A stretch of 1,875 nt of DNA from Escherichia phage ECO95 1-6-1 (OR845638.1), one strand, 5' to 3'. Positions 1,568 to 1,602 are shown, counted from the first letter of the stretch. A program made the numbers and translations. The notes: generated from the letters alone by a model not told the origin.

Positions 1568-1602
1568 TAAATGATATTTAATTACATGATAAATGATATT
1601 TA
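1568..1602. promoter_or_regulatory. Two exact copies of a 13-bp motif TAAATGATATTTA spaced 22 bp apart (candidate operator)
   Basis: TAAATGATATTTA occurs at 1568-1580 and again at 1590-1602. Each copy is itself a short inverted repeat (TAAAT-gat-ATTTA). The 22-bp centre-to-centre spacing is about two helical turns, which places both copies on the same DNA face. Confidence 0.35.

Follow-up and report, generated by a model that had tools for sequence, protein, structure and literature searches.

Introduction

The textbook LysR box is an interrupted dyad with a T-N11-A core. The consensus of OxyR, quoted as ATAGntnnnanCTAT-7nt-ATAGntnnnanCTAT (PMC10580950), combines two 15-bp interrupted dyads that have this core, are 7 nt apart, and are spaced 22 bp from center to center. 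In this study, we analyzed a site of the same format in a 1,875-nt stretch of DNA from Escherichia phage ECO95 1-6-1 (OR845638.1); this whole stretch is referred to as the window. The window is the published Salmonella chitinase/type-10-secretion locus and contains chiH, chiP, chiR, and the start of chiA; when it was compared with E. coli genomes, no match was found. The element in question is a 13-bp direct repeat between the divergent genes chiR and chiA, which can be described as two 15-bp dyads placed in phase (the double dyad). Tentatively, its binding partner would be STM0014, a LysR-type protein encoded next to chiH.

Activators of the ToxR/PhoB class are expected on a 10-bp direct repeat that abuts the -35 region, and Pho-box-type sites consist of direct repeats one helical turn apart in place of the -35 hexamer. 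ToxR binds AT-rich 7-mers in which position 6 is T; these sites are occupied in multiple copies over ~50 bp upstream of -45, in tandem and on an inverted repeat (PMC10629549). Tandem ToxR monomers on the toxT promoter lie "exactly 10 base pairs apart" (PMC10629549). CadC, a ToxR-like one-component regulator, binds the Cad1 site of E. coli cadBA with two DNA-binding domains arranged head to head (PMC5430869).

A cascade from a LysR regulator to a membrane-bound activator is also represented among the described systems. AphB, a LysR regulator, activates tcpPH and cadC. It is also reported to enhance toxR transcription (PMC2806343). In Serratia marcescens, the chiR-cbp21 region has a ChiR of the LysR type and is not known to have a ToxR-like partner.

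Salmonella uses a type-10 secretion system to export the invasion factor ChiA. Expression of chiA requires ChiR, and ChiR is also sufficient for it; this ToxR-like membrane protein lacks a periplasmic sensor domain. Contact with polarized epithelial cells increases chiR transcripts (PMC10109510, Krone et al. 2023). Reporters of chiH and chiP are also ChiR-dependent, and the expression is bimodal (2026 paper, PMC13284979). A ChiR binding site is not reported in these two papers or elsewhere in the literature searched. ChiR, the master regulator of ChiA, has been characterized genetically, but within the literature searchable, no publication describes an operator, a promoter map, or a route of the upstream signal for chiR.

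Structure of the repeat

The element was initially annotated as an exact 13-bp direct repeat with a 22-bp period in a divergent promoter region and was judged unlikely to occur by chance. Our analysis bears out each of these points. Sequence reading and a repeat search located TAAATGATATTTA at 1568–1580 and 1590–1602 as 100% identical copies with a start-to-start distance of 22 bp, in the gap between the minus-strand regulator gene and the plus-strand gene at 1807. The bases that flank the two copies differ (T1567 versus A1589; A1581 versus C1603); therefore, 13 nt is the full extent of the exact direct repeat. When the 380-nt intergenic region (33% G+C) was simulated 5000 times with a first-order Markov model, an exact direct repeat of 13 nt or longer with an offset of 5–60 nt appeared at a frequency of 0.0008.

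The 13-mer is itself palindromic (TAAAT-gat-ATTTA) and has the form T-N11-A. When one base is added to each side, two 15-mers separated by 7 nt are obtained (dyads 1 and 2; Table 1). The extents of the dyads and the spacer follow the information content of 30 loci, for which the consensus is TTAAnT-N3-AnTTAA, N7, nTAAnT-N3-AnTTAA. The arms of dyads 1 and 2 carry 1.40 and 1.35 bits per position, respectively, as compared with 0.33–0.35 bits in the centers, 0.35 bits in the 7-nt spacer, and 0.3–0.6 bits in the flanks. The conserved positions of the 15-mer are 1–4, 6, 10, and 12–15. The strongest positions are T2/A14, A4/T12, and T6/A10, and T2 and A14 reach 1.8–2.0 bits. In an alignment of 15 loci, the bases TAA (1568–1570) and TTA (1578–1580) of dyad 1 are invariant, as are T1590, A1592, T1594, T1600, and A1602 of dyad 2. 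No third degenerate dyad was seen by eye in the alignment 21–22 bp toward chiR.

Because the conservation lies in the arms and not in the center, selection acts on a dyad that is present twice in phase and not on a head-to-tail repeat. The element reads as a 13-nt direct repeat in Salmonella because GA is moderately conserved at center positions 7 and 8 in the Salmonella-Klebsiella-Kluyvera-Superficieibacter clade. The proposal that the repeat is a tandem direct repeat of the OmpR/ToxR class does not agree with these results. Sites of that class have direct half-sites 10–11 bp apart, which is the case for the neighboring TGAT-N6-TGATT motif described below and not for the double dyad, with its 22-bp period.

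Within a genome, the centers of both dyads tend to agree (GATG/GATG in L003, TGG/TGG in L018, and also TTT/TTT; loci L003, L018, and L029–L033). These matching centers suggest gene conversion between the copies or a shape preference shared by the binder.

Conservation in orthologous loci

One genome per species was scanned, which gave 52 loci with a ChiR relative. The arrangement in which chiA is divergent from chiR-chiP and chiH is convergent recurs in many genera, including Salmonella, Klebsiella, Kluyvera, Superficieibacter, Pseudocitrobacter, Enterobacter, Dryocola, Siccibacter, Scandinavium, Enterobacillus, Chimaeribacter, Rahnella, and Ewingella; Cronobacter and another Klebsiella lineage were added by later look-ups. 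In the closer genera, the 13-mer pair is located at an equal offset from the chiR ATG with 0–2 mismatches. The element is kept at a matching offset in the orthologous loci of ~15 enterobacterial genera, and the conservation in homologous loci that the initial annotation had named as a check is thus present.

A motif-blind search, in which pairs of 15-bp palindromes 21–23 bp apart were scored against shuffled sequence, returned a palindrome pair 138–157 nt from the chiR ATG in most loci. The scores of the pairs were 17–24, as compared with a 95th percentile of 16 in shuffled sequence. The period was 22 bp wherever a pair was detected, with a single exception of 23 bp. In Rahnella and Chimaeribacter, the arms are TTGAGT/ACTCAA or TTAAGT/ACTCAA, and the 6-3-6 layout and the 22-bp period are unchanged. 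When 10 kb per locus was searched with the dyad consensus, the pair upstream of chiR was the sole conserved intergenic match. These data show that the element is real and non-random, that it has dyad symmetry and cross-genus conservation, and that its position is tied to chiR.

RNA folding of 1555–1615 was no better than that of shuffled sequences on either strand (z = -0.06), and Rfam gave no credible match. Therefore, an explanation at the RNA level was rejected, and a protein-binding operator is the sensible reading. The repeat is very probably such an operator.

Relation to the chiR promoter

Control of both divergent transcripts by the repeat had also been suggested, and the distances argue against it. 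Dyad 1 is located 137–155 nt from the chiR ATG in 28 loci, whereas dyad 2 is located 151–317 nt from the chiA ATG and 96–233 nt from the chiA promoter box. A regulator-holin-LysR mini-cassette without chiA is present in Pseudescherichia and at a second locus of Scandinavium (L025 and L027), and the upstream neighbor is an unrelated, co-directional radical-SAM gene. The dyads and the adjoining TCACA motif are still present in these loci. The near-fixed distance to chiR and the persistence without chiA assign the dyads to the upstream region of chiR and not to both transcripts. The double dyad belongs to the chiR promoter.

The distance between dyad 2 and the chiA box is 122 nt in S. enterica and S. 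diarizonae, as compared with 130–134 nt in S. arizonae, Klebsiella, and Kluyvera. The 10-bp shortfall corresponds to one helical turn; therefore, the relative phase is retained within the clade. It is not retained in more distant genera.

TGAT boxes and predicted promoters

Two TGAT boxes lie on either side of the double dyad (Table 1). In the intergenic alignment of 15 loci, TGA (1711–1713) and GTGATT (1720–1725) of the chiA-side box are invariant. On the other side, the phased double dyad lies 5 nt upstream of the chiR-side TGTGATTA box, with dyad 1 as the nearer unit. The TCAC core of this box (1548–1551) is invariant in the 15 aligned loci, is kept in most of the 30 loci, and is always located 14 nt from dyad 1. 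Upstream of chiH, the motif (A/T)TGATG-N4-T(T/G)TGATTA was found in every genus examined (L001–L014; ~6460–6480 in L001).

At both chiA and chiH, exactly 22 nt separate the end of the TGAT box from a -10-like hexamer in all genera examined. The hexamer is (G/A)ATTAT at chiA and TAC(A)(C/T)T at chiH, and the 22 intervening bases are free. On the chiR side, a distance of 23 nt separates the box from the TACAAT of predicted promoter P1, in the Salmonella-Klebsiella-Kluyvera clade only. The second TACAAT (predicted P2) is more widely conserved than the first, which makes the predicted chiR start site uncertain. A minus-strand block that includes the second TACAAT (ATGGATTAAGACAnTTCTCnTACAATATA, 1474–1500) is conserved as far as Superficieibacter, where the hexamer is TATAAT. 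This block may be a second chiR promoter or a leader element.

In the window alone, TGAT-N6-TGATT gave 2 matches versus 0.99 expected, which is not significant. A sigma-70 scan of 1380–1875 gave 3 sites versus 2.3 expected, none at the conserved positions, and was of no help in locating the promoters. The support for the TGAT box comes entirely from its conservation across genera and its fixed spacing.

A 10-bp direct repeat abutting the -35 region is present at the ChiR-dependent promoters; therefore, the TGAT box, and not the 13-mer, was assigned to ChiR. By these sequence criteria, TGAT-N6-TGATT is probably the ChiR activation site. The box also resembles the arrangement of tandem ToxR monomers, 10 bp apart, on the toxT promoter. 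The TGAT boxes, and not the 13-mers, are similar to Pho-box-type sites in having a 10-bp direct repeat that abuts the -35 region, 22 nt from the -10 hexamer, at chiA and chiH. However, the sequence of the TGAT half-site differs, and the presumed binder would be ChiR.

Additional TGAT/ATCA inverted repeats, ATGAT-N6-ATCAT and ATCATC-N6-GATGAT, are located directly upstream of the chiA box (1686–1714). They are conserved in three Salmonella lineages and not in Klebsiella, and they may be extra ChiR half-sites.

STM0014 as the candidate binder

The initial annotation considered the repeat to be the operator of the adjacent regulator. The operator part of this assignment is retained as very probable, and the binder is revised: ChiR becomes the second-best candidate after a LysR-type protein, to which the shape of the element is better suited. 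TGAT-N6-TGATT marks the ChiR-dependent promoters, and the 13-mer is absent upstream of chiH. Our preferred reading, to which we give a probability of roughly 0.45, is that the double dyad could be an operator of STM0014 that modulates chiR. The gene for STM0014 is located directly upstream of chiH, beyond the window edge. It is co-directional with chiH and not divergent from chiR, and an STM0014 homologue contains HTH_1 and LysR_substrate domains.

Several features of the site are those of a LysR-type regulator. It has the T-N11-A core, an interrupted dyad with specific arms (1.35–1.40 bits) and non-specific centers (0.33–0.35 bits), and two sub-sites about two helical turns apart. A LysR gene is linked to the site and, as at LysR-type tetramer sites, is encoded within the chi cassette. 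By format, core, phasing, and linked LysR gene, the double dyad structurally qualifies as a putative LysR-type tetramer site. The likeness to the OxyR consensus extends beyond the dyad length, the 7-nt gap, the 22-bp spacing, and the core: the specified positions (1–4, 6, 10, and 12–15) are identical, as are six of the ten specified bases (T2, A3, T6, A10, T13, and A14). However, positions 4 and 12 are A/T in the chi dyads and G/C in OxyR; therefore, OxyR itself is unlikely to bind them.

The distribution of the genes is also consistent with STM0014. A similar LysR gene is present in nearly every ChiR-family locus, whatever the cargo. The only full-length loci without it are those of Yokenella (L034) and Trabulsiella (L040), in which chiA, the ChiR-like gene, and the TGAT box are kept and the dyads are gone. 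Protein and context searches for a LysR homologue without a ChiR-like neighbor, or the reverse, always gave the trio of ChiR-like regulator, LysR regulator, and holin, and only Yokenella and Trabulsiella differed. The dyad half-site has an invariant A at position 4, whereas the TGAT box has an invariant G at the equivalent position; these two motif classes map economically onto two regulators. The clade-wise drift of the arms favors a binder that is specific to the locus and co-evolves with it over a global regulator.

In the proposed mechanism, the upstream region of the chiR promoter would contain a two-site operator composed of the two 15-bp dyads. With centers 22 bp apart, the four half-sites would face one side of the helix, and the half-site centers would fall within ~50 degrees. 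A dimer of STM0014 dimers would occupy the dyads, the centers of which are at ~-64 and ~-86 if predicted P1 is used. The bound protein would bend or pre-organize the chiR promoter and would thus help or gate ChiR and RNA polymerase at the neighboring box. The transcription of chiR would be modulated by STM0014 in response to a small-molecule ligand. Once produced, ChiR would activate chiA, chiH, and chiR-chiP via TGAT-N6-TGATT, which would replace the -35 region, and this positive loop may lead to the observed bimodality.

A number of observations weigh against STM0014. Deletion or overexpression of stm0014 in LB left the chiA promoter activity and the ChiA levels unchanged, and ChiA was still secreted by the stm0014 deletion mutant on contact with polarized epithelial cells, in an assay with strains that carried a chiR plasmid (PMC10109510). 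The negative outcome of these tests is a difference from LysR-type systems, and STM0014 is no essential activator under the published conditions. Because induction by cell contact persists in the mutant, STM0014 would act as a modulator or on another cue, such as chitin-derived sugars, and would not be obligatory. The geometry is a second point. If predicted P2 is real, the dyad centers are at ~-107 and ~-129, which is not the canonical LysR position. Under predicted P1, the second dyad is upstream (-86) of the -65 site and not downstream toward -35, unlike in LysR-type systems. The LysR gene of the Salmonella-type cassette also differs from that class in not being divergent from its target. 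In the Salmonella-Klebsiella-Kluyvera-Superficieibacter clade, center bases G7 and A8 are moderately conserved (1.1–1.6 bits), and this mild asymmetry is not expected of a purely symmetric dimer. No such dyad pair was found in the paralogous STM0029-31-type LysR/ChiR-like loci (L037 and L038), and no similar dyad was found in the upstream region of STM0014 itself. The evidence for co-loss of the LysR gene and the dyads is limited to two related genera. Finally, the arm classes differ in the recognition helix of ChiR (DANLTQI to DASLTQT) and also in that of the LysR protein (TPAAVSLAL to S(T/V)SAVSLS); therefore, covariation with the arms cannot discriminate between the two regulators.

The STM0014 model is similar to the AphB system, in which a cytoplasmic LysR protein that senses a ligand or condition switches on the gene for a membrane winged-helix activator and, through it, virulence genes. 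However, AphB is not linked to the genes that it controls and uses a single partial-dyad site. Moreover, the AphB effect is experimentally established, whereas the chi effect is proposed from sequence, and the published stm0014 tests were negative.

A more far-reaching and doubtful proposal is that the double dyad supplies the input that the ChiR circuit is missing. The LysR protein would sense a glycan-derived metabolite and license chiR, and ChiR would then autoamplify and fire the type-10 genes. How the mucin or host-contact signal reaches the sensor-less ChiR is a question that the double dyad could address if such a LysR cascade is true. The LysR regulator, the sensor-less ToxR-like activator, and the holin would then form a two-tier switch that is general to type-10 secretion cassettes across Enterobacterales. 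This module would span cargo types such as GH18/GH19 chitinases and Rhs proteins.

Alternative binders

Another possible binder, which we regard with some doubt, is ChiR. The double dyad would then be ChiR's own set of upstream sites, with the membrane-anchored protein bound to the four AT-rich half-sites in an inverted-repeat mode beside the TGAT box. The effect would be positive autoregulation of chiR-chiP and/or displacement of H-NS, as by ToxR over -45 to -97 of toxT. The published genetics all implicate ChiR and not STM0014. In addition to the requirement for ChiR at chiA and the rise of chiR transcripts on induction (PMC10109510), the reporter of chiP, located downstream of chiR, is silent when chiR is deleted, and a bimodal expression pattern is seen (PMC13284979). 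The chiP result and the bimodality fit positive autoregulation. Of the solved structures, the best match of the chiR product is the ToxR DNA-binding domain. Like ToxR at the toxT and ompU promoters (PMC10629549), ChiR is a membrane-anchored winged-helix protein, and the base-contacting Thr-Gln of ToxR helix 3 is present in it as LTQ, which is invariant across homologues. The half-sites TTAAATG and TTAAATA obey the ToxR rule of a 7-bp A/T tract with T sixth (PMC10629549), a rule that is permissive. The inverted format has counterparts in both relatives, because ToxR binds in tandem and on inverted repeats (PMC10629549) and CadC binds head to head on an AT-rich quasi-palindrome well upstream (PMC5430869). 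The same-face phasing suits a membrane-tethered protein. Moreover, TTAAATGAT is common to the dyads and the distal half of the chiH/chiA box in Salmonella and Kluyvera, and the variant TTTAATGA is common to the dyads and the box in L010.

However, a strict dyad with a free center in a 15-N7-15 layout is not the usual signature of the OmpR/ToxR class. The half-site is unlike the TGAT box of the ChiR-dependent chiA and chiH promoters at invariant positions. Sites of this class are present at regulator-dependent promoters, and there is no dyad upstream of chiH, a ChiR-dependent gene, or within ~120 nt of the chiA box. Furthermore, the dyads are missing from the loci that have a ChiR-like gene and chiA and no LysR gene, and the ChiR paralogue loci do not have such a pair. 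The comparison with ToxR also reveals differences. ToxR sites are little conserved and are explained by "topological" recognition, whereas T2, A4, and T6 of the chi dyads are nearly invariant across genera. The chi units are tight 6-3-6 palindromes, and no such regular double dyad has been described for ToxR. The core of Cad1 is one 17-mer (consensus TTAxxxxT) and not a phased pair, and the site is located in the target promoter and not in the promoter of the regulator itself. If ChiR is the binder, the double dyad would show that a ToxR-like protein can bind inverted sites as a regular dimer of dimers.

It is unlikely that the site belongs to a regulator encoded elsewhere (LeuO, H-NS, or another dimeric repressor or activator), which would tie chiR to a general physiological signal. 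GATAAAT within 1588–1594 may resemble the H-NS nucleation motif. The region is AT-rich (33% G+C), and the target promoters of ToxR and CadC are described as H-NS-repressed (PMC10629549, PMC5430869). The published absence of an stm0014 phenotype is also compatible with an outside regulator (PMC10109510). However, the arms drift between clades and the position and the 22-bp phasing stay, whereas global motifs are usually stable across Enterobacterales. The dyad consensus likewise had its sole conserved intergenic match upstream of chiR within the 10 kb searched per locus. The consensuses of CRP, FNR, Fur, ArgR, TyrR, NagC/Mlc, ArcA, and OxyR were compared with the dyads, and each presumably fails either the half-site spacing or an invariant base.

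A recent local duplication or low-complexity AT-rich DNA with no specific function is highly improbable: AT-rich DNA readily yields short repeats, a degenerate motif pair is common in unrelated AT-rich metagenomic DNA (among the matches listed in a metagenome scan for the degenerate double dyad, which were AT-rich or tandem-repeat DNA, none had ChiR, LysR, holin, or GH108 genes), and the co-varying centers of the copies in some genomes (L003 and L018) could reflect gene conversion, but an exact 13-mer at such spacing has a P of ~0.0008, the pair is kept at an equal offset with a 22-bp period in ~30 loci with randomized flanks and spacer, and its scores are above the 95th percentile of shuffled sequence.

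The double dyad represents a known kind of operator, in an instance not described before, within a characterized virulence locus. With either STM0014 or ChiR as the binder, the advance is incremental within known classes of bacterial operators. Two mutable cis-elements are now defined with base-level predictions: the double dyad (1567–1603), and the two TGAT boxes of Table 1 together with the chiH copy. Each element has been given a candidate protein, so the control of chiR and the sensing of the signal become directly testable.

Features of the locus

The features of the window are listed in Table 1. The chiR product is 98% identical to S. enterica proteins annotated as "transcriptional regulator". 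The assignment of chiA was examined in the full-length orthologue of L001, in which Glyco_hydro_18 was detected with E = 9e-56. In Salmonella, Klebsiella, and Cronobacter, dnaJ and nhaA flank the insertion of the whole cassette (L001, 6400–8900; L053 and L055, whole loci).

Table 1. Coordinates of genes, operator units, and predicted promoter elements in the window
Feature	Positions	Strand	Description
chiH (STM0015)	28–372	+	LydA-type holin
chiP (STM0016)	433–966	-	GH108 muramidase with peptidoglycan-binding domain
chiR (STM0017)	983–1426	-	147-aa ToxR-like winged-helix activator with C-terminal membrane (hydrophobic) helix
chiR-chiA intergenic gap	1427–1806		380 nt, 33% G+C
Predicted chiR -10, P2	1474–1479	-	second TACAAT; more widely conserved than P1
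Predicted chiR -10, P1	1517–1522	-	TACAAT; Salmonella, Klebsiella, Kluyvera; not Superficieibacter or Pseudocitrobacter
chiR-side TGAT box	1545–1561	-	ATGAAATAATGTGATTA (minus-strand reading); inverted-repeat partner of 1710–1726
Dyad 1	1567–1581		TTAAATGATATTTAA; 13-mer copy 1 at 1568–1580; from 30-locus information content
Spacer	1582–1588		TTACATG; 7 nt, length fixed, sequence free; mean 0.35 bits, 30 loci
Dyad 2	1589–1603		ATAAATGATATTTAC; 13-mer copy 2 at 1590–1602; from 30-locus information content
chiA-side TGAT box	1710–1726	+	ATGATGTTTTGTGATTA; direct repeat TGAT-N6-TGATT; candidate ChiR activation box
Predicted chiA -10	1748–1753	+	GATTAT; (G/A)ATTAT in 14/15 loci, 22 nt from box
chiA (STM0018), start	1807–1875	+	GH18 chitinase, secreted cargo

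The trio of a ChiR-like membrane winged-helix regulator, a LysR regulator, and a LydA-type holin is conserved in L025, L027, L037, L038, L041, L042, L177, L178, and L179. The cargo of the trio varies and includes a GH19 chitinase (L179) and an Rhs-repeat protein (L178); L025 has no chitinase. The LysR gene and a ChiR paralogue are divergent in the STM0029-31-type paralogue locus of Salmonella. The upstream region of the LysR gene of the chi cassette contains a separate conserved block, GAATTGATTTATnTTGAGTATTATCTATATTGC.

A GC-rich hairpin or dyad, CGCAG-AACGAG-CTGCG, is located at 1760–1775, just past the predicted chiA -10 and ~30 nt before the ATG. RNAalifold on the alignment of the chiA leader gave no structure, the hairpins being out of register. 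In a direct hairpin search, the position was kept in ~20 loci with varying stems (ACAGC/GCTGT, GTAGG/CCTAC, GTAGC/GCTAC, and GCAGC/GCTGC). The stems differ and remain paired, which indicates covariation. The element could be a 5'-terminal stem-loop of the chiA mRNA or a protein dyad.

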